Shown here: positions 53,344 to 61,562 of the stretch, one piece after another
Numbering within the stretch: the stretch's first letter is position 1
Layout of the letters: each line of letters starts with the position of its first letter
DNA from: Deltaproteobacteria bacterium
GTDB lineage: Bacteria > Myxococcota_A > UBA9042
Length of the DNA stretch: 64,000 bases
Assembly: GCA_020632665.1 (NCBI GenBank)
Contig: JACKFC010000008.1
Span: 71,557 to 135,556 of the forward strand
Direction of reading: 5' to 3'
The notes under the pieces: generated by a model
Databases searched by the model: none
Told to the model about the DNA's origin: nothing
The model's input: only the letters and a program-made list of their open reading frames with translations
Made by a program: the position numbers and the translations under genes

Positions 53344-56000
53344 TTGCCCGCTTTCTTCGCCTTGGCCATCCGGTGCACGCGCTGGATCAGGTTCTCGATC
53401 TTCTGCTTGCTCGCGTCGTCCTGCGCCGAGAGCTTGAGCTTGCCAAGCGTCTGCAGCAGCGGGCCCTCCTGGCTCGGATCGACGTCCATCGTGACGCCGG
53501 TCTCGTGCCACGCCTTCTTCCAATCGCCGGCCTGGGCGAGCGCCAGGGCGTAGGCGCGCTTGAGCGAGCCGTCGCCGCTGCCGGCCAGCGCTGCCGCCTG
53601 ACCGTAGGCCTTGGCCGCCTCGGCATGGTTGCCGGCCCGGGTCCAGGCCTCTCCGACCGACTTCCACCCGGCCAGCCGCGCCTTGTGCACGCGCTCGCCG
53701 TCACGCGCCCGCCGCTGCCGGGCGCCGGGCTGGCGATCGTCGATCTTGGCCGCCTGCACGTTGCGTACGCCGAAGGCGCGCACCTTGGCGACGTCGGCCC
53801 AGCGGCCCTTGGCTTCGTAGGCGCTCTCGAGGTTGTCGAGGAATTGCTTGTTCTGCCGGTGCCGCTCGAGGAAGGGCTCGAGCGCGGCGATCGTCTCGTC
53901 GAAGCGACGGGCCCGGTTCAGCCAGCGTGCGCGGGTGTTGAGCGCGTAGGCCTCGTCGGGCTTGAGCGCCAGCGCCGCGTCGAGCGCTTTCTGCATCTTC
54001 ACCTCGTCGCCGGCCTTCTGCGCGAAGAGCGCGAGGTTGACCCAGGCGTTGAGCAGGTTGGGGTAGAGCCGGAGCGAGCGCTCGATGGCGTCGATCGCCT
54101 TGGGCATATTGCCGAGCGAGTTGTGGCAGAGCCCCTCGATGAAGTGGTTCTGGAAGTCGTCGCCGTTGAGGGCGACCGCACGCTCGATCTCGATCAACGC
54201 CGCGCCGGCCTGGCCGCGCTTCTGCTTGCTGCGGGCGAATGTGAAGCCTTTCTCTGCTTCGAGTAGGCGGTCGTTCTCCCAGTGGACGAAGCCGACGCTC
54301 AGCACCGCCGCGACCAGCAGCGCGAGCAGCGCCCCGCCCTGCAGCGGCTGCGGCTGCGGCATCCGCGCCGACGCCGCTGTGCCGTCGTCATCGGCCTCGA
54401 AGACCTCGGGGTAGGCGTCCTCGTGCCGGCGCCGGACGAAGGCATACGCCGCGCCGATCACGCCGATGTGGACCAGGAAGAAGAAGGTCGGCGCCGGCAG
54501 CTGGAAGGGGAACGAGAGCAGCGCGTCGCCGCAGATCGCGATCAAGCCGGCGACCGAGGAGAGCGAGCCCAGCGCCATCCAGGCGACGTCGTCGCGCTGG
54601 CGCAGCCTTGGCCGACGCGAGAGCGCCAGCGTCCGCATCGAGAGCCACATCGAGACCAAGATCAGCGCCATGAAGCTGGCGAAGCCCTGGATGCCGTATT
54701 CGCTCCACAGCTGCAGGAAGTCGTTGTGCGCGCGGGTCGGCTGCTTGGCGATCGAGAAGTGGTCGTTGTCTTCGCGCTGGGTGACGTATTGCGGGAAGAG
54801 GACGCGCCAGTTGCCGGCGCCGCCGCCGAGCGGCTTGGCCTTGATCGCCTCCCAGGTCGAGGCCCACATCATCCGGCGCATCGCCCAATGCGAGTCTTCG
54901 GTGTCGCCGACGGTGCTGACCAAATCGACCATGCTCATCTTGCGCTTGCGGTCGCCGACGCCCTCGTCGAAGCGGGCCGAGAATCCGGCGTCGACCAGCA
55001 GCGCGCTGGCCAGCGCGATCGCGACCACGCCGCTCGCTCCCAGGCCGAGCACCAGCGGCGCGACCTTGCGGCCACCGCCGTCGCCGAGCTCGGCCTCTTC
55101 CGCGCCGTCGGATTTGTCGACGCTGCGGTGGCGCAACACGCCGATGGCGTACAGGCCCACCGCGATCATCAGGCCGAGCGCCGCGCCACCCCAGGCCGAG
55201 CGCGTGACCGAGAGGCGGAGGTAGTAGAGGAGCAGGAAGAGCAGGATATTGCCGGCGCTGCCGATGAGCAGCGCGCGCTGCACGCGATTCTCCCGCCACC
55301 AGCGCAGGCTCATCGCCAGCAGGACGTAGGCGCCCGGCATCACGCTCACGATCAGCTGCGCCGCCATGTTGCGGTTGCCGAAGGTCGAGCCGGGCGCGTT
55401 GATGCCGACCCAGCGGCGGGCGTCTTCCGGCAGCAGGCCGTCGATATTGTGGTGCTGCGCGATGCCGAAGATCGCGACCTGCACGCCGCCGAGCAGCATG
55501 CCGCCGACGACGTAGAGCAGCTGCCGCGGGGTGCGCACCGTGGAGATCGTCAGCAGGCCGATCAGCAGCGCCGCTGCCCAGCGGTAGGCGTCCATCTTGG
55601 CGAAGATCGAGAGCACGCCGCCGGTCTCGTCCGGGGCGAAGGCGACGCCCAGCGCGACCGAGGCGGCGAGGCCGACGATCGGCCACTTCAGCGGCGTGTT
55701 CTGCAGCCCCAGCGGCCGCTTGAGGAAGCCCATCGCCGCGACCGCGGCCAGCATCCACGCGGCGCAGACCGTCATCGCGAAGGTCTTGGGCAGCTGATAG
55801 AGGTCGCGGATTCCGACTTCGACCAACCGCGGCAGCAGCATCGCCGTCAGGCCGAGCACGATCGCCGGCAGGTCGTCGACGATCGATTGGTTCTGGATCG
55901 TCGGCGCCGCTGCGGTCTGTACCGGAGGCGCGGGCCGAATCGGCGTGCTCGGCGCGCTCGGCGCGTCGAAGGTCGGCTTGATGCGGTTCTTCTTGGCCAC
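53340..56000 (-). CDS. O-antigen ligase (Wzy_C)-family membrane protein with C-terminal TPR repeats
   Basis: Multiple TMs, STFGNRN, TRSAWGG, PLGGGAGNW, AHNDFLQLWSEYG; TPR-like C-terminus; probable GTG start at 56000. Confidence 0.82.
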   Translation of the reverse strand: MAKKNRIKPTFDAPSAPSTPIRPAPPVQTAAAPTIQNQSIVDDLPAIVLGLTAMLLPRLVEVGIRDLYQLPKTFAMTVCAAWMLAAVAAMGFLKRPLGLQNTPLKWPIVGLAASVALGVAFAPDETGGVLSIFAKMDAYRWAAALLIGLLTISTVRTPRQLLYVVGGMLLGGVQVAIFGIAQHHNIDGLLPEDARRWVGINAPGSTFGNRNMAAQLIVSVMPGAYVLLAMSLRWWRENRVQRALLIGSAGNILLFLLLYYLRLSVTRSAWGGAALGLMIAVGLYAIGVLRHRSVDKSDGAEEAELGDGGGRKVAPLVLGLGASGVVAIALASALLVDAGFSARFDEGVGDRKRKMSMVDLVSTVGDTEDSHWAMRRMMWASTWEAIKAKPLGGGAGNWRVLFPQYVTQREDNDHFSIAKQPTRAHNDFLQLWSEYGIQGFASFMALILVSMWLSMRTLALSRRPRLRQRDDVAWMALGSLSSVAGLIAICGDALLSFPFQLPAPTFFFLVHIGVIGAAYAFVRRRHEDAYPEVFEADDDGTAASARMPQPQPLQGGALLALLVAAVLSVGFVHWENDRLLEAEKGFTFARSKQKRGQAGAALIEIERAVALNGDDFQNHFIEGLCHNSLGNMPKAIDAIERSLRLYPNLLNAWVNLALFAQKAGDEVKMQKALDAALALKPDEAYALNTRARWLNRARRFDETIAALEPFLERHRQNKQFLDNLESAYEAKGRWADVAKVRAFGVRNVQAAKIDDRQPGARQRRARDGERVHKARLAGWKSVGEAWTRAGNHAEAAKAYGQAAALAGSGDGSLKRAYALALAQAGDWKKAWHETGVTMDVDPSQEGPLLQTLGKLKLSAQDDASKQKIENLIQRVHRMAKAKKAGK

Positions 56001-56124
56001 GATGGAACTCCGGCTGGGAGAGATCTCGACTTCGAGGGCCGAGAGGATACGCGCTGCGACGCATTTTCCGAAAGGGGCCGATAAGAGGGAAGGGAGCAAG
56101 GAGAGGGGAGCCGAAGGAGCCAGC

Positions 56125-56526
56125 ATGCACGTCGAATCGACCACCACCGCCGTGGCCCGCGCGCCCGTCGCGGTGCCCACCCTACTCGACCGCCTCGACG
56201 CCGCCGCCGCCAGCGCGCTGCGGTCCGAGCCCATCGCCTCGGGCCAAGTCGGCGCCGGTCTGCAGCTCTGCGAGGACCTTCTCGCGTTGCGCCAGGCGGA
56301 CCGGGCCGCCTACGAGACGGTGATCGCCGCGCGGCGGCCGTTGCTCGGCGTCTGGCTCTGGCGCCTGGCGCTCGCCGTCGCGGCGGCAGGCTGGCCCTCC
56401 GCCGGGCTGGAGCTGCTCGACGCGCTGCCCGGCGTCTTGGTCGACGGCGCCTGCCGCGAGGTGGTCGCGGCCGCCTTTCGGGAGCCTGCTGTGGCGCCGC
56501 TGCGGGCGGTCGGGGGTGGCCGATGA
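56125..56526 (+). CDS. Hypothetical protein (133 aa)
   Basis: AAGGAG RBS before ATG; ATGA overlap with downstream regulator. Confidence 0.55.
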   Translation: MHVESTTTAVARAPVAVPTLLDRLDAAAASALRSEPIASGQVGAGLQLCEDLLALRQADRAAYETVIAARRPLLGVWLWRLALAVAAAGWPSAGLELLDALPGVLVDGACREVVAAAFREPAVAPLRAVGGGR

Positions 56527-57776
56527 ATCGTCACGAATGGGCCGTGTTGCTGCGCGATCGCAGCGGTTGGCGCACCGTCCTGCCGCAGGGCCGGCTGACC
56601 CTCTGCGCGCCGGACGCCGTGGCCGACGCCGCCGACTGCCCGGACGTCGTCGTCTCCGCCGACGTGCCGATCGGTCGCTGGCTCCGCTTCCGGGCCCAGG
56701 GCGAGGGGGTGCTCGTGGTCGGCGAGGGCGCGGTCGACGCCAGCGGCGCCGCGATCACCGGCCGCCCCCGCAGTGTGCGCCCGGGCGAGGTGATCCGCCT
56801 GGGGCCGGTCGCGATCGTGCTGCTGCAAGCGGTGCCGGTGGCCGGCGGCGGTCGTGGGCCGGTGCTGCTGCGCGCGGCGGACGCGCTGAGCGCCTGCCCT
56901 TCGGTGCACCGCGCGTGGGGGGAGCTGTTGCTCGCGGCCAGCACGGATTGGCCGATCTTGCTGCACGGCGCGTCGGGCACCGGCAAGGAGCTCGCGGCGC
57001 GCTTGGCGCATCAGGCCTCACCGCGGCACGCGCAGCCGATGGTGGCGATCTCCGCAGCGGCGCTGCCGGCCGGCACGATGCACGCCGAGCTCTTCGGCGC
57101 GCGTCGCGGCGCCTATACCGGCAGCGTCGCCGACCGCGAGGGCGCCTTCGGCCGGGCCGACGGCGGCACGCTGCTGATCGACGAGGTCGGCGAACTCGAC
57201 GCCGGGGCGCAGGCGGCGCTGTTGCGGGTGCTCGAGACCGGAGAGATCACCCCGCTCGGCGACCGCCCGCGGCAGGTCGACGTCCGCGTCCTCGCCGCCA
57301 CCCACCGCGACCTCGGCGCGATGGTGCAGGCCGGGCATTTTCGGCTCGACCTCTACCACCGCCTATTGGTCACCGCCGTGACCCTGCCACCGCTCGCCGC
57401 GCGGGCCGACGACGCCGCGCGGGTCCTCGCCGAGCTGCTCGGTCGGCCGCTCGACGCCGCGACGCGGGCCGTCGTGCAAGGCTACGACTGGCCTGGCAAC
57501 CTGCGCGAGCTGCGCAACGTCGCGCGGCGGGTCCGGCTCTCGATCGCCGACGGTGAGCCGACCGCGGCCGACGTGCGGGCCGCGATCGCTGCCGGCGCGC
57601 CGCGGCAACGCGCCCTGGCCCGGGTCGATCCCATCGCCCGCCGCGCCGAACGTCGCCGCCGGGTCGCCGCGGCCGTCGCCGATCACGCCTCGACCGCCGC
57701 CGCGTGCCGCGCGAGCGGGTTGCCACGGGCGAGCTTCTACCGCGCGCTGCGCGAGCTGCGGGCCGATGCGGCCTGA
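56523..57776 (+). CDS. Sigma54 enhancer-binding-type AAA+ transcriptional regulator without receiver domain
   Basis: GASGTGKELAAR, ELFGARRGAYTGS, GGTLLIDEVGEL, FRLDLYHRL, WPGNLREL, C-terminal HTH-like segment. Confidence 0.88.
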   Translation: MNRHEWAVLLRDRSGWRTVLPQGRLTLCAPDAVADAADCPDVVVSADVPIGRWLRFRAQGEGVLVVGEGAVDASGAAITGRPRSVRPGEVIRLGPVAIVLLQAVPVAGGGRGPVLLRAADALSACPSVHRAWGELLLAASTDWPILLHGASGTGKELAARLAHQASPRHAQPMVAISAAALPAGTMHAELFGARRGAYTGSVADREGAFGRADGGTLLIDEVGELDAGAQAALLRVLETGEITPLGDRPRQVDVRVLAATHRDLGAMVQAGHFRLDLYHRLLVTAVTLPPLAARADDAARVLAELLGRPLDAATRAVVQGYDWPGNLRELRNVARRVRLSIADGEPTAADVRAAIAAGAPRQRALARVDPIARRAERRRRVAAAVADHASTAAACRASGLPRASFYRALRELRADAA

Positions 57777-57887: not shown

Positions 57888-58613
57888 ATGTCCCGTACCG
57901 TCCGCAGCCTGCTCCGCACCTCGACCGCCCTATTCGGCCTGCTCGCCGGGCTGATGGCGGGCTCCCCGGCGTTCGCGCAGGGCGCGCTCGTCACCGGCGC
58001 GGACGCAGCCTTCGCGGCTCCGGCGGTCTCGGTGGTCGGCGCCGAGACGCTGGCTCCCGGAGAGCGCGCGCTCGTGGTCTCGGCCGGCTTGCCCGACGTC
58101 GAGGTCGGCATGCTCTGGGGCACCAGCTCGATGACGGACGTGCTCGCGCGACTGCGCTTTCAATACGGCCGCGGGGTGCGGATCGCGGGCGGCGGCATCA
58201 CGCTCGGCACGACGCTGCGCATGCGCCTCGCCAGCTTCTCGGGCTGGAACCTGGCGTTGACCAGCGACCCCGAGCTGACGCTGCACATCCTCGGCAGCGA
58301 TCACCCACCGACCAGCAAGACCGGCCCGGTCGCCTTCGGCGTCACGCCGTTGGCCGGCGGCGTGGTCCTGGATCGGATGCTGCTGCCGGAAGTGCGCCTC
58401 GCCCTGGCGGTGCAGACCGGCGTCGGTTTCTTCATCGCGCCCGATACCGTCGTCTCCGTCCCCATCAGCGTCGGGATCGCGGTCGAGAGCAAGCTGGCGG
58501 AGTCGATGTGGCTCTTCGCGCGGATCGACACCGGCTACGACCTCTATGGCCCCGGTGGCATCCCCGGCTCGGACGTCCTGCTCCGCGCGCGCCTCGGCCT
58601 CTCGTTCCTGTAG
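57888..58613 (+). CDS. Hypothetical exported beta-rich protein (possible outer-membrane barrel)
   Basis: Signal peptide ending PAFA; alternating beta-strand pattern; C-terminal Phe-Leu. Confidence 0.6.
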   Translation: MSRTVRSLLRTSTALFGLLAGLMAGSPAFAQGALVTGADAAFAAPAVSVVGAETLAPGERALVVSAGLPDVEVGMLWGTSSMTDVLARLRFQYGRGVRIAGGGITLGTTLRMRLASFSGWNLALTSDPELTLHILGSDHPPTSKTGPVAFGVTPLAGGVVLDRMLLPEVRLALAVQTGVGFFIAPDTVVSVPISVGIAVESKLAESMWLFARIDTGYDLYGPGGIPGSDVLLRARLGLSFL

Positions 58614-58927
58614 CGAATCGACGCAGTCTGCTCGACCGCAGCCAATCCTCCAGATCCCGTTCAGGTTCACGGTTCTCCGGCCGGCCGCCGCAGGCGTTGG
58701 CGGGTCCGACCGCCACTCTGCGTCACTCTGCCGCAGGGCGACATCGATGTCGTCCGTGAAAAAATAGTTTGAAATCGGAACATTCAGGATCGTCTGCGGA
58801 TCAAGTGCGCAAGACTTGCGCGGTAAGCGACAACCATGTCCGGCCCTCTCGATCCGACGATCGCCTCGATCACGGAGATCCCGCGAGATCTCGGCAGAAG
58901 ATCTGACATCATGATCAGGGTCGAGGT

Positions 58928-58943
58928 TGGCACGGCCTGTGCA
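58928..58943 (+). promoter_or_regulatory. Sigma54 -24/-12 promoter
   Basis: TGGCACG-GCCT-GTGCA matches consensus TGGCACG-N4-TTGCW with one mismatch. Confidence 0.65.
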
Positions 58944-58953
58944 TCATGAAGAG

Positions 58954-59052
58954 GCACGACGGATCGCTCGATCCCTCCAGTTGCTTGCGTACATGATCGG
59001 GTTGGAAGACGCGCGGGGCTCCGGTGCCAAAGGAGCCCCGCGCGTCGCTTTT
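58954..59052 (+). ncRNA. Candidate sigma54-dependent small RNA
   Basis: Bounded by a sigma54 promoter and an intrinsic terminator; no usable ORF inside; potential stem-loops and a CCCTCC motif. Confidence 0.45.
59008..59052 (+). terminator. Rho-independent terminator
   Basis: Perfect 15-bp stem GACGCGCGGGGCTCC / GGAGCCCCGCGCGTC with 9-nt loop, followed by GCTTTT. Confidence 0.75.
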
Positions 59053-59062
59053 GGGCCCTGCG

Positions 59063-59091
59063 TTGACTTGCAACCTCGGGGTGGTATGACT
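59063..59091 (+). promoter_or_regulatory. Possible sigma70-type promoter for the ArnT-like gene
   Basis: TTGACT (59063-59068), 16-bp spacer, TATGAC (59085-59090), immediately after the terminator. Confidence 0.4.
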
Positions 59092-59120: not shown

Positions 59121-61562
59121 GTGCAGCGACACCCACTTGCCATCCTCGCGGACCCGGAGTCCCTCGACCGCTTCGAGCCGACGCAGGCCGACCGGCGCTG
59201 GCGCTGGGGCACGATCTTCGCGTTCTTCGCGCTCTACGTCTGGAATTGCGGCAGCTTCGGCCTCTGGGACCCGTGGGAGACCCACTACGGTGAGGTCGCC
59301 CGCAACATGCTCGAGAGCTACGATTGGGTGAACCCGTGGTGGGGCTACCGGGAGAAGATCGGCACCGAGCCGGTCGCCGGCAGCTGGTTCTACTCCAAGC
59401 CGATCTGGATCTTCTGGTCCGAGGTGACCTTCCTCAAGCTGATCGGCCTTTCGGATTGGGCGTTTCGCCTGCCGATGGCGCTGATCGGCGCCTCGGCGGT
59501 GAGCGCGCTCTACCTCGCGGTCGAGCGGGCCCTCTCGCGCCGCCACGCCTTCTGGGCCGCGGTGGTCGTCGGCCTCTCGCCCTTCATCTACATGGTCAGC
59601 CGCCAGGCGCAGACCGATATGCCCTTCGTCGCGACGATGACGATCGGCCTCTCGTTCTTCATCGCCGCGGTCTTCGGCCGCCGCGAGCCGCTGAGCGACG
59701 CCGCTTTCGCCCGCCGCATCGCGGCATTTCTCGCCTTCTTCGCAGCGAATCTCGGCCCACAGCTCGCGATCGTCGCCACCGACCTGGTCGATCCGAACGC
59801 CGGCGCCGGGCTCTCGGGTGGTGCGGCGATCGCGGCGCAGATCCAACAGAACGGCGTCTGGCACTTGCTCTTCTACGTGCCGCCGGCGATCGCCGTCCTG
59901 GCTTCGGTGCTGCTGCCGATCTGGCGCGCCCGCGGCGCCTGGGACGACGCCTTCAAGGACCGGACGCTGCGGCGGATGCTGTTGCTCTGCTTCTACATGA
60001 TGCTGGCGCAGGCGACCTACGCCAAAGGTCTGCTCGGCTTCATGCTGCCCGGCGCGATCTTGTTCATCTGGCTGCTGGTGACGACGCATTGGCGCGTCCT
60101 CGGCCGGGTCGAGCTGCTCCGCGGCATCCCGCTCTTCCTGATCACGGCGCTGCCCTGGTACGTCGCGATGTTCTGCCGCCACGGCCGCGCCTACTACGAC
60201 CGCTTCTTCATCCATGACCACTTCAACCGGGTCGGCTCGGGTGTGCACCAGATCGACCACGGCACGTTCGAGCACTTCATCGAGTGGCTCGGCTACGGCC
60301 TCTTCCCATGGACCGCGCTGGTGCCGATGGCGCTGGTCGCGGTGGCGCGGCCGCGTCGCGCCGAGGCCAGCGGCACCGATTCGGTGCACGGCCAGGCGAT
60401 GCGGGCGTTCATCTTCGTCTGGTTCGCGGTCGCCTTCGCCGTCTTCACCATCAGCTCGACGAAGTTCCACCACTACATCTTGCCCGCGGCGCCGGCGCTC
60501 GGCCTGCTCGTCGCCTTCTACCTGGTCGAGCTCGAGCGCCTGCCCGACGCGACCCGCCGGCTGCACCTGCTGCTCGCCGTGGGCGTCGGCGCGGTCCTGC
60601 TCGTCGATCTGTGGATCGAGCCGCAGAGCCTGCGGCAGATGTTCACGTACAAATACGACCGCCCGCTGCCAGACTTCCTGCCCTACGATTGGAACGACGT
60701 GCTCGATTGGCGCTCGGACGGCAAGCCGGCGCTGCGCTGGGGCGAGACCGACTTCGCGCGGCACGTCGGCGCCACCACTGCCGCGCTGCTGCAGGTGCCC
60801 GCCTTCCGCTACGAGCGCTTCGTGCCATGGGTCGGTGGCCTCGCCGTCGCGCTGCTCTTGGTCGGCCTGCTGCGACGCGGGATCTCGGCGATGCGGATCG
60901 GCGTCGCGGCGAGTGCGGCGCTCATCGCCTTCTGGGCGTTGAACGTCTACATGCCGCTGCTGACGCCTTCGTGGAGCCAGCGCTACAACTTCGAGGCGTA
61001 CTACGGCGACTGCACCCCGCTCGAGCAACCGGTCGAGATCACCGAGGCCTATACACCGCTGGTGCGCCGCGCCGGATTGGACTTCGTCGCCGACTTCTTC
61101 GACAGCAAGCCCAAGCGCGTCTGCCGCGAAGACATCATCTCCTGGCTGATCACCTGGCGCGGCGAGACCTTCTACTCGAACAACGAGATCCGCCCGATCA
61201 ACAAGGAAGCGACGCAATTCGAGCCCTACCTGCGCGACTCGAACCACGGCAAGACCTTCTACGTCCTCATGGAGCGCGGCCGCAACGGCGGCTTCCTCGG
61301 CAAGCTCCGCTCGGAGAGCCGCAAGCTGAAGGACCGCGGCGAAGAAGGCTGGAAAGAGATCCGCGACTGGGACTGCACCTTGATCAACAACGACTCGGCG
61401 TTCTTCGTCGTCTCCAAGTGTGTGCCGAAGTACGAAGGGCAGTCTACGCCCGAGCCGACGACCCGGCCCGGTAAGGCGATCCCGACCGGGCGCGACGCGC
61501 AGAAGCTCCTCGAAGGCCTGCGCCGCGGCGCGCGTCCGGCACCCGCCGCGCCGGGACGTTGA
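59121..61562 (+). CDS. ArnT/PMT-family (GT-C) membrane glycosyltransferase
   Basis: LWDPWETHYGEVARNML, FYSKP, RLPMAL, TDMPFVA, YAKGLLG, LPWYVAM, TKFHHYILP; many TMs. Confidence 0.85.
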   Translation: MQRHPLAILADPESLDRFEPTQADRRWRWGTIFAFFALYVWNCGSFGLWDPWETHYGEVARNMLESYDWVNPWWGYREKIGTEPVAGSWFYSKPIWIFWSEVTFLKLIGLSDWAFRLPMALIGASAVSALYLAVERALSRRHAFWAAVVVGLSPFIYMVSRQAQTDMPFVATMTIGLSFFIAAVFGRREPLSDAAFARRIAAFLAFFAANLGPQLAIVATDLVDPNAGAGLSGGAAIAAQIQQNGVWHLLFYVPPAIAVLASVLLPIWRARGAWDDAFKDRTLRRMLLLCFYMMLAQATYAKGLLGFMLPGAILFIWLLVTTHWRVLGRVELLRGIPLFLITALPWYVAMFCRHGRAYYDRFFIHDHFNRVGSGVHQIDHGTFEHFIEWLGYGLFPWTALVPMALVAVARPRRAEASGTDSVHGQAMRAFIFVWFAVAFAVFTISSTKFHHYILPAAPALGLLVAFYLVELERLPDATRRLHLLLAVGVGAVLLVDLWIEPQSLRQMFTYKYDRPLPDFLPYDWNDVLDWRSDGKPALRWGETDFARHVGATTAALLQVPAFRYERFVPWVGGLAVALLLVGLLRRGISAMRIGVAASAALIAFWALNVYMPLLTPSWSQRYNFEAYYGDCTPLEQPVEITEAYTPLVRRAGLDFVADFFDSKPKRVCREDIISWLITWRGETFYSNNEIRPINKEATQFEPYLRDSNHGKTFYVLMERGRNGGFLGKLRSESRKLKDRGEEGWKEIRDWDCTLINNDSAFFVVSKCVPKYEGQSTPEPTTRPGKAIPTGRDAQKLLEGLRRGARPAPAAPGR

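Follow-up and report, generated by a model that had tools for sequence, protein, structure and literature searches.

Nucleotides 58928-59052 of the window, the 64,000-nucleotide stretch of DNA analysed here from the assembly of an uncultured deltaproteobacterium (GCA_020632665.1; hereafter G000), very probably form a genuine non-coding RNA gene with a product of about 100 nt. We further consider it likely, with somewhat less confidence, that this product is a sigma-54-dependent, trans-acting, base-pairing small RNA (sRNA). The element appears to represent a previously undescribed and conserved sRNA gene family that belongs with the base-pairing sRNAs dependent on sigma-54 and its enhancer-binding proteins (EBPs). 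Comparison among relatives points to conservation of the unit, a single gain of this unit, covariation within its terminator, and covariation between the principal pairing segment of the sRNA (its seed) and a second RNA that we designate RNA-B. An earlier note made on this DNA had proposed an unannotated sigma-54-dependent sRNA at this position, and the proposal is supported by conservation of the unit in six genera, terminator covariation, absence of the whole block from sister genera and the presence of rpoN.

The promoter and the predicted RNA are conserved in six genera

The sigma-54 promoter TGGCACGGCCTGTGCA (58928-58943, forward strand) has its GG (-24) at 58929-30 and its GC (-12) at 58941-42, and places the transcription start near 58954, as previously predicted. 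The spacing of the two elements is correct, TGGCACG-N5-TGCA is unchanged in every member, and rpoN (PF04552 match above cut-off) is encoded both in G000 and in its congener G001, which together represent genus g1. Within the window the sigma-54 motif has two matches against 0.2 expected. The predicted sRNA is about 99 nt long (58954-59052, forward strand), its 5' end being inferred from the promoter and its 3' end from the terminator, and as a whole it folds only moderately better than shuffled sequences (z = -2.3).

BLAST comparison with relatives showed that the region is 89% identical within its own genus and 68-76% identical in genus g12, and short matches confined to the promoter region revealed two further genera. 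A search with a sequence-only covariance model covered the 37 genomes of an uncultured Myxococcota family and matched strongly in 11 of them (G000, G001, G012, G019, G024, G023, G018, G011, G009, G006 and G007), spanning genera g1, g12, g11, g9, g6 and g7, with a weak twelfth copy in G052. The model found no member in the remaining 70 of the 107 genomes of the class; in GTDB the order is identical to the family. A strict-pattern scan of all GTDB species genomes returned six already-known species only, apart from one chance match in coding sequence (L014), and a metagenome scan added four further distinct lineages (loci L162, L163, L164 and L168), a fifth match (L167) being rejected as chance. 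The copies share a common layout, in which upstream palindromes and an ATGATCA-N-ATGATCA-like box by the -24 element precede TGGCACG-N5-TGCA, a variable 5' part, a CU-rich box, GUUGYYURCGUAC, usually CGGGUUG, and finally a GC-rich hairpin with a T-tract.

This hairpin is an intrinsic terminator (59008-59052, forward strand) consisting of a 15-bp stem (59008-59022 with 59032-59046) that forms a perfect inverted repeat, as had been noted before, around a 9-nt loop, GGUGCCAAA, followed by GC-UUUU (T-tract 59049-59052). Both sides have changed in 10 of the 15 pairs, pairing is kept in 89% of cells compared with 33-51% when the 3' partner is slid, and the observed covariation score was reached by none of 500 shuffles. 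The core GCGGGG/CCCCGC is found in most members and the loop motif GGUGCCAA is conserved as sequence in g1 and g12. The U-tract comprises four U in G000 and five to six in most relatives. A simple scanner called neither the G000 terminator, which has only four T, nor the sigma-70-like promoter that the earlier note had assigned to the next gene; this site, TTGACT-N16-TATGAC (59063-59090, forward strand), is present ahead of the GTG start at 59121, lies outside the RNA and is kept in the sRNA-carrying genera.

No conserved open reading frame (ORF) was found across the RNAs of the relatives, which bears out the earlier description of some 100 nt without a usable ORF. A small-protein reading was rejected: the LLAY/LLTY frame that runs through the seed is shared for four residues only, ends in some relatives at 6 or 14 codons, and has ahead of it an anti-Shine-Dalgarno sequence, not a Shine-Dalgarno (SD) sequence. 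The earlier note had also pointed to an Rfam search and to covariation in relatives as checks. The terminator covaries as described above, and no Rfam family, Qrr and GlmY/GlmZ included, matched the window at its gathering score, the only matches being sub-threshold chance ones at E up to 10.

Sister genera retain the flanking genes without the module

The element lies between a gene for a 241-aa protein, itself preceded by an EBP gene, and a gene for a PMT_2 glycosyltransferase (described below). Genera g5, g3 and g10 keep all three genes; in them the PMT_2 promoter (TTGACTT-N17-GGTATGA) stands a few tens of bases past the stop codon of the 241-aa gene, and neither a sigma-54 motif nor the upstream palindrome described below is present at these sites. 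When a maximum-likelihood tree was built from the N-terminal part of PMT_2, one branch with support of 100/99 separated the 11 genomes that carry the module from the 7 that do not, which implies a single gain or a single loss of the module. Together with the empty sites, this pattern suggests that the module was gained once within this uncultured myxobacterial group.

A conserved, putative pairing segment is complementary to a predicted second RNA

The 5' part of the predicted RNA contains the hairpin previously described as GGATC-GCTC-GATCC (SL1, GGAUC-GCUC-GAUCC; 58961-58974, forward strand), which appears in both the minimum free energy (MFE) and the centroid folds. In g12 and part of g11 the hairpin has other sequences with pairing kept (GGAC/GUCC, GGAUCG/CGAUCC and GGGACGAC/GUCGUUCC), and it also occurs, with a different but complementary sequence, in L164. 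It is overlapped by the CU-rich anti-SD-like box CCCUCC (58973-58978, forward strand), which reads CCUUCC or UCACCU in relatives and is complementary to GAGGGAUC of RNA-B. The earlier note had singled out this box; it is present as described, but the conserved segment proposed to pair is longer, the box forming its 5' portion and the 13-nt seed GUUGCUUGCGUAC (58980-58992, forward strand) its continuation. The family consensus of the seed, GUUGYYURCGUAC, is nearly invariant: three positions vary in most members, by transitions in every case, giving the variants GCUUG, GUCUG, GCUUA and GUCUA, and the seed is degenerate only in the g11 genomes G011 and G052. Averaged over the seed, the predicted probability of being unpaired is 0.39-0.71. 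A second motif, CGGGUUG (58998-59004, forward strand), is kept as sequence in nearly all members and is, by inspection, the exact complement of CAACCCG in RNA-B.

RNA-B was located by a genome scan of G000 for the complement of the seed, which identified GTACGCAGGCAACCCGAGGGATCC at position 121180 of contig C6, outside the window. The surrounding unannotated RNA, about 200 nt or more (C6 ~121140-121390, forward strand; loci L082, L083 and L091), is flanked by a divergent nadE and an aldehyde dehydrogenase gene. It comprises a 5' hairpin, the complementary segment, UCCCCC repeats, the motif GGACAACUUGGGAUUGCA and a terminator called on the same strand, and looks like a transcription unit of its own. 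The site was also considered as a second copy of the sRNA, a reading rejected because the strand that such a copy would occupy has no promoter and the terminator is on the opposite strand. Relatives contain further copies (L098 in G001, L089 in G006 and L090 in G007), which share the invariant segment GUACGYARGCAACCCGAGGGAUCC. The (G)GUCCCCC repeats number two in G000 and about 12 in G007, and the 5' hairpins differ in sequence among copies with their pairing kept by compensatory changes. RNA-B folds well (z = -3.1) with the complementary segment predicted to lie in a long-range helix with the 3' motif; it has no match in Rfam, and might itself function as a sponge-type RNA.

The predicted duplex comprises 13 bp, a 2-nt internal loop and then 7-8 bp, a 21-bp interrupted complement of the CU-rich box and seed, with sRNA positions 58970-58992 contacting GUACGCAGGCAAC..GAGGGAUC of RNA-B. 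When G000 was scanned for duplexes with a 25-nt query, RNA-B was the best non-self site (-38.7 kcal/mol, the next being -35.2). Across the family the site was found only in sRNA-carrying genomes, and searches in g12, g11 and g9 did not find it. One position has changed on both RNAs: g1 has GCGUAC in the sRNA and GUACGC in RNA-B, g6 and g7 have ACGUAC and GUACGU, and native pairs outscore pairs swapped across genera. Since the A of the A:U state in g6 and g7 is also found in the sRNAs of g9 and g11 on the PMT_2 tree, the g1 state looks derived on both RNAs. On balance we favour RNA-B as a direct partner of the sRNA.

Attempts to trace RNA-B further added no copies. It was not found next to nadE in other genera, and searches with the UCCCCC repeats and the 3' motif gave, beyond the known copies, only chance or coding matches. 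A conserved box by nadE is not related to RNA-B and resembles a nadE operator. This box, ACGTCTGATAATAGGTATTATGTMAACT, contains the palindrome ATAAT-N4-ATTAT (G000 C6 ~121070-121095; loci L104-L122), precedes nadE in nine or more genera of the family, and has the appearance of a site for a regulator of nicotinamide adenine dinucleotide metabolism.

The sRNA versions of g11 (L023 in G018, L025 in G011, L035 in G052 and L007 in G023) are about 165 nt long and contain two additional hairpins. The loop of one of these, UUGGGGGAGG, complements UCCCCCAA repeats of the kind seen in RNA-B, RNA-B itself not being found in this genus.

Because the seed is also kept in genera without a detected RNA-B, SD-proximal mRNA targets are to be expected as well. 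No conserved sRNA site was found among the neighbouring genes, and scanning for duplexes with all 57 nt of the 5' part was uninformative, the genome being GC-rich. The best leads among the start regions of G000 are C13:23155 (forward strand), C31:3246 (reverse strand) and C32:26525, none of which exceeds shuffled controls. C31:3246 and C13:23155 encode paralogous giant Cys-rich secreted proteins (1082 and 1499 aa), whose SD regions, GGAGGGA and GGAGGGAUC, form the best sRNA duplexes among start regions; C31:3246 carries GUACGCAAG-U-GGAGGGA, the bipartite layout seen in RNA-B. The third lead lies at the start codon of a gene for an NHL-repeat lipoprotein.

Palindromes and GATC sites upstream of the promoter

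Palindromes upstream of a -24/-12 promoter are the layout typical of EBP-dependent promoters. Upstream of TGGCACGGCCTGTGCA we found a putative distal upstream activating sequence (UAS), the perfect palindrome GACATCGATGTC (58740-58751), which has three copies in the assembly against 0.8 expected; relatives in g12 have related distal copies at about -190 (GACGTCGATGTC in G012, imperfect in G024 and G019). Another palindrome, TGCGCAAGACTTGCGCG (58806-58822), is conserved as TGCGCAA-N-TTGCGCA just 5' of a proximal UAS (58829-58840), which in other genera reads GACATSSATGTC and stands about 90 bp upstream of the promoter. This proximal palindrome is degenerate in both g1 genomes (GACAACCATGTC in G000, GACAAGCATGTC in G001). 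Outside g1, GACATSSATGTC occurs once per locus in all eight sRNA-carrying loci scanned, and the UAS palindrome is present in none of 10 loci scanned that have no sRNA.

The interval from the UAS to the promoter contains seven GATC sites, 8-13 bp apart within 66 bp (58851-58916), the densest such cluster of the 4.79-Mb assembly. Part of this cluster is also conserved in g12 and g11. Its sequence takes in GAGATC-N6-GATCTC (58875-58892) and TGACATCATGATCA (58904-58917), the latter being a box adjoining the -24 element that is conserved in all members and reads ATGATCA-N-ATGATCA in relatives. Phased protein binding, methylation and bending are possible roles of the cluster. A second region of dense GATC clusters was seen elsewhere in G000 (C34:87804-87930), where several 72-bp windows hold six sites each.

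Gene neighbourhood

The EBP gene (56523-57776, forward strand) encodes a 417-aa protein with an AAA+ Sigma54_activat domain (PF00158, E 1e-50); its NCBIfam matches are generic only, all below equivalog cut-offs, and its 127-aa N-terminal domain has no match in Pfam. The 241-aa secreted protein (57888-58613, forward strand), encoded directly upstream of the module, has homologues in 27 of the 37 genomes of the family and no match in Pfam or NCBIfam; its signal peptide and C-terminal ...GLSFL lead us to read it as a protein resembling an outer-membrane barrel. Downstream, the PMT_2/ArnT-like glycosyltransferase gene (59121-61562, forward strand) has a GTG start and is followed by a kinase-like gene, and a divergent Wzy_C/TPR gene lies on the other side of the EBP gene. 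The neighbours, a Wzy-like ligase, an outer-membrane protein (OMP)-like protein and an ArnT-like glycosyltransferase, are thus all envelope-related, which suggests an envelope-related signal.

The order Wzy/TPR gene, EBP gene, 241-aa gene, sRNA, PMT_2 gene and kinase gene is kept in sRNA-carrying genomes wherever the contig reaches. G009 is the exception, its EBP and 241-aa genes being located on another contig (C507) and followed there by a different gene. On contig C836 of G009 (L006/L049), upstream of the sRNA regulatory region, a 16-nt tandem repeat array (CCGTCTGCTCGGCYC) takes the place of the 241-aa gene. The layout in this genome indicates either a rearrangement or an assembly break.

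A 193-aa ORF without a match in Pfam (55945-56526, forward strand) ends in an ATGA that overlaps the start codon of the EBP gene, an overlap that suggests translational coupling. This ORF and the 5' end of the Wzy_C/TPR ORF, a mechanical call on the opposite strand, overlap as well, so that one of the two start calls is probably wrong.

Proposed mode of action and alternative explanations

According to the model that we favour, RNA polymerase with sigma-54 would bind TGGCACG-N5-TGCA and would be activated by an EBP, most simply the one encoded one gene upstream, from GACATSSATGTC and TGCGCAA-N-TTGCGCA about 90-190 bp upstream; transcription would end at the covarying terminator. The sRNA would then act in trans through one continuous exposed segment, formed by the CU-rich anti-SD-like box and GUUGYYURCGUAC, and would pair with the RNA-B segment held in the long-range helix, either remodelling RNA-B or being titrated by it. 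Transcription, its dependence on sigma-54 and an EBP, the EBP that acts, and the direction and outcome of regulation are all predictions of this model. A more elaborate version, which we regard as doubtful, is a two-RNA switch: RNA-B would be a sponge whose UCCCCC array titrates a G-rich partner (SD regions or an RNA-binding protein), and the EBP-induced sRNA would turn this sponge on or off by opening the closing helix of RNA-B via GUACGYARGCAACCCGAGGGAUCC. In g11 the same logic may run through the UUGGGGGAGG loop added to the sRNA itself.

Several observations weigh against the sRNA model or parts of it. All members come from uncultured metagenome-assembled genomes and the transcript itself is predicted. 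The pattern TGGCAC-N5-KTGCH has 18 matches in the G000 assembly (GC content 70%) against about 19 estimated from base composition; as the motif is at chance frequency genome-wide, the case for the promoter rests on comparison with relatives and not on the match. The EBP gene is syntenic in genera with and without the sRNA, and the UAS palindrome has no other copy within the EBP locus, leaving adjacency as the sole link between this EBP and the promoter. We give the adjacent EBP an even chance of being the activator of the sRNA promoter. Within the RNA, SL1 is not evident in g6 and g7 and hence not universal, the U-tract is poor in G006 and L168, and the possible second wobble stem of the earlier note (an SL2-like stem) does appear in the MFE fold, but by inspection both of its sides are conserved as sequence, without covariation. 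As for the pairing, about 8,900 crude translation-start regions of G000 were scanned and none scored beyond shuffled controls; ten shuffled queries gave best duplexes of -31.3 to -37.0 kcal/mol, so that the margin of RNA-B is small within a single genome. RNA-B was found in only three of the six sRNA-carrying genera (g1, g6 and g7), and its four copies are homologous, so the covariation with the seed counts as one evolutionary event.

An alternative, which we judge unlikely, makes the element a leader that acts in cis: conditional transcription of PMT_2 would start from the sigma-54 promoter, the hairpin would be a regulated attenuator and the sRNA merely the terminated leader. The element does always stand directly upstream of PMT_2 on the same strand, and its short U-tract, missed by the scanner in G000 and poor in two other copies, would suit an attenuator. 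However, PMT_2 retains its own promoter-like site past the terminator, the genera without the sRNA use that site, and the empty sites and the tree argue against the element as a native PMT_2 leader. The stem is moreover long, GC-rich and covarying as a terminator, no conserved alternative anti-terminator pairing was found when one was looked for, and a complement that covaries with the seed is found at another place in the genome. In a somewhat less probable reading, the RNA binds or titrates a protein instead of pairing: the conserved single-stranded segment would be where the protein binds, and its complementarity to RNA-B would be incidental or reflect a shared protein partner. Such a reading would fit the failure of any mRNA target to exceed shuffled controls, the resemblance of the repeated UCCCCC motifs of RNA-B (about 12 copies in G007) to protein-sponge RNAs, and the conservation as sequence of CGGGUUG and of the g1/g12 loop motif GGUGCCAA; yet the seed varies by transitions only, and the compensatory change between seed and RNA-B points to selection on pairing.

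It is very unlikely that the stretch is regulatory DNA without a stable RNA, whether as a set of protein-binding sites or as a promoter and terminator remnant serving the envelope genes. The RNA product is a prediction from sequence, and the upstream 200 bp are dense in palindromes and GATC sites, as such a reading would have it; but conservation continues downstream of the promoter, pairing in the hairpin is kept through two-sided changes, which implies selection on an RNA or single-stranded DNA structure, and in most members a T-tract follows the hairpin on the promoter strand. The least probable explanation, to which we give almost no weight, was raised in the earlier note itself: that the hairpin simply terminates the 241-aa gene at 57888-58613. 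No other strong hairpin indeed stands between 58613 and this one on the same strand, but this one lies 395 nt past the stop codon and behind a conserved promoter, and sister genera keep the 241-aa gene without the hairpin and the rest of the module. The absence of the whole block where the flanks are kept, taken with the tree, excludes the hairpin as a mere terminator of this gene. We retain the trans-acting sRNA as the best explanation of the locus.

Relationship to known sRNAs

To our knowledge, few sRNAs dependent on sigma-54 and an EBP have been described, namely Qrr, GlmY/GlmZ, Pxr and a few in pseudomonads; among myxobacteria we know of studies on Pxr only, whose targets are still debated. 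Among the Qrr genes of Vibrio, qrr1 stands next to the gene for its activator. Pxr is a 108-nt RNA with three stem-loops, of which SL3 has a conserved 8-bp core; it has a sigma-54 promoter with an enhancer region, is located between pxrR/nla19 and Mxan_1079/1080, and is restricted to Cystobacterineae (PMC5568312, PMC5684412). Both Pxr and the sRNA described here are myxobacterial, multi-hairpin RNAs of about 100 nt with a predicted sigma-54 promoter, an upstream enhancer region and an NtrC-type activator gene nearby; both have a terminator stem with compensatory change, are lineage-restricted and are of recent origin. The earlier note had called the arrangement Pxr-like without claiming homology, and the analogy in layout holds apart from the position of the activator gene: Pxr has pxrR/nla19 and Mxan_1079 as its direct neighbours, but at the present locus the EBP gene is followed by an OMP-like gene and only then by the sRNA and PMT_2. 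Of the 111 ancestral Pxr positions, 85 could be recovered from published primers, and the present RNA shows no similarity to these; the seed, the upstream palindromes and the host lineage all differ. Of the counterparts to the Pxr stem-loops, SL1 is present in some genera, the SL2-like stem is without covariation, and the terminator core GCGGGG/CCCCGC is not Pxr sequence. The lack of similarity to the available positions, together with the different neighbours, implies that the RNA is not a member of the Pxr family.

The Qrr sRNAs of Vibrio, which depend on LuxO and sigma-54 (PMC10162802), resemble the present RNA as trans-acting sRNAs activated by an EBP and sigma-54 (here predicted) with a conserved single-stranded pairing segment; they differ in sequence and phylum, and the element described here is single-copy and has no Rfam match. 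GlmY and GlmZ of Enterobacteria (PMC4152352, PMC7073468) share the dependence on sigma-54 and an EBP, in that case GlrR (here predicted), a link to envelope genes, and the involvement of two RNAs of which one acts on the fate of the other (here proposed). In contrast to the present pair, which are unrelated, complementary and without a match in Rfam, GlmY and GlmZ are homologous, and GlmY is a protein decoy that does not pair with GlmZ. The relation of the sRNA to RNA-B also resembles sRNA-sponge pairs such as RoxS-RosA of Bacillus subtilis (bioRxiv 10.1101/814905), in that a C-rich RNA would be sequestered or remodelled by a second, extensively complementary RNA; the sequences are unrelated, and here the interaction is predicted from sequence and either RNA could be the sponge.

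The family would thus be a second, independent myxobacterial example of an sRNA of this class, and the comparative evidence for it is unusually clean: the module appears to have been gained once and the empty sites are intact, the enhancer architecture is conserved, the seed is defined and the putative RNA partner covaries. Concrete, testable pairing predictions follow from it, in hosts that are uncultured. It would also offer a case in which a complete regulatory RNA module, comprising enhancer, promoter, RNA and terminator, arose between two existing genes.

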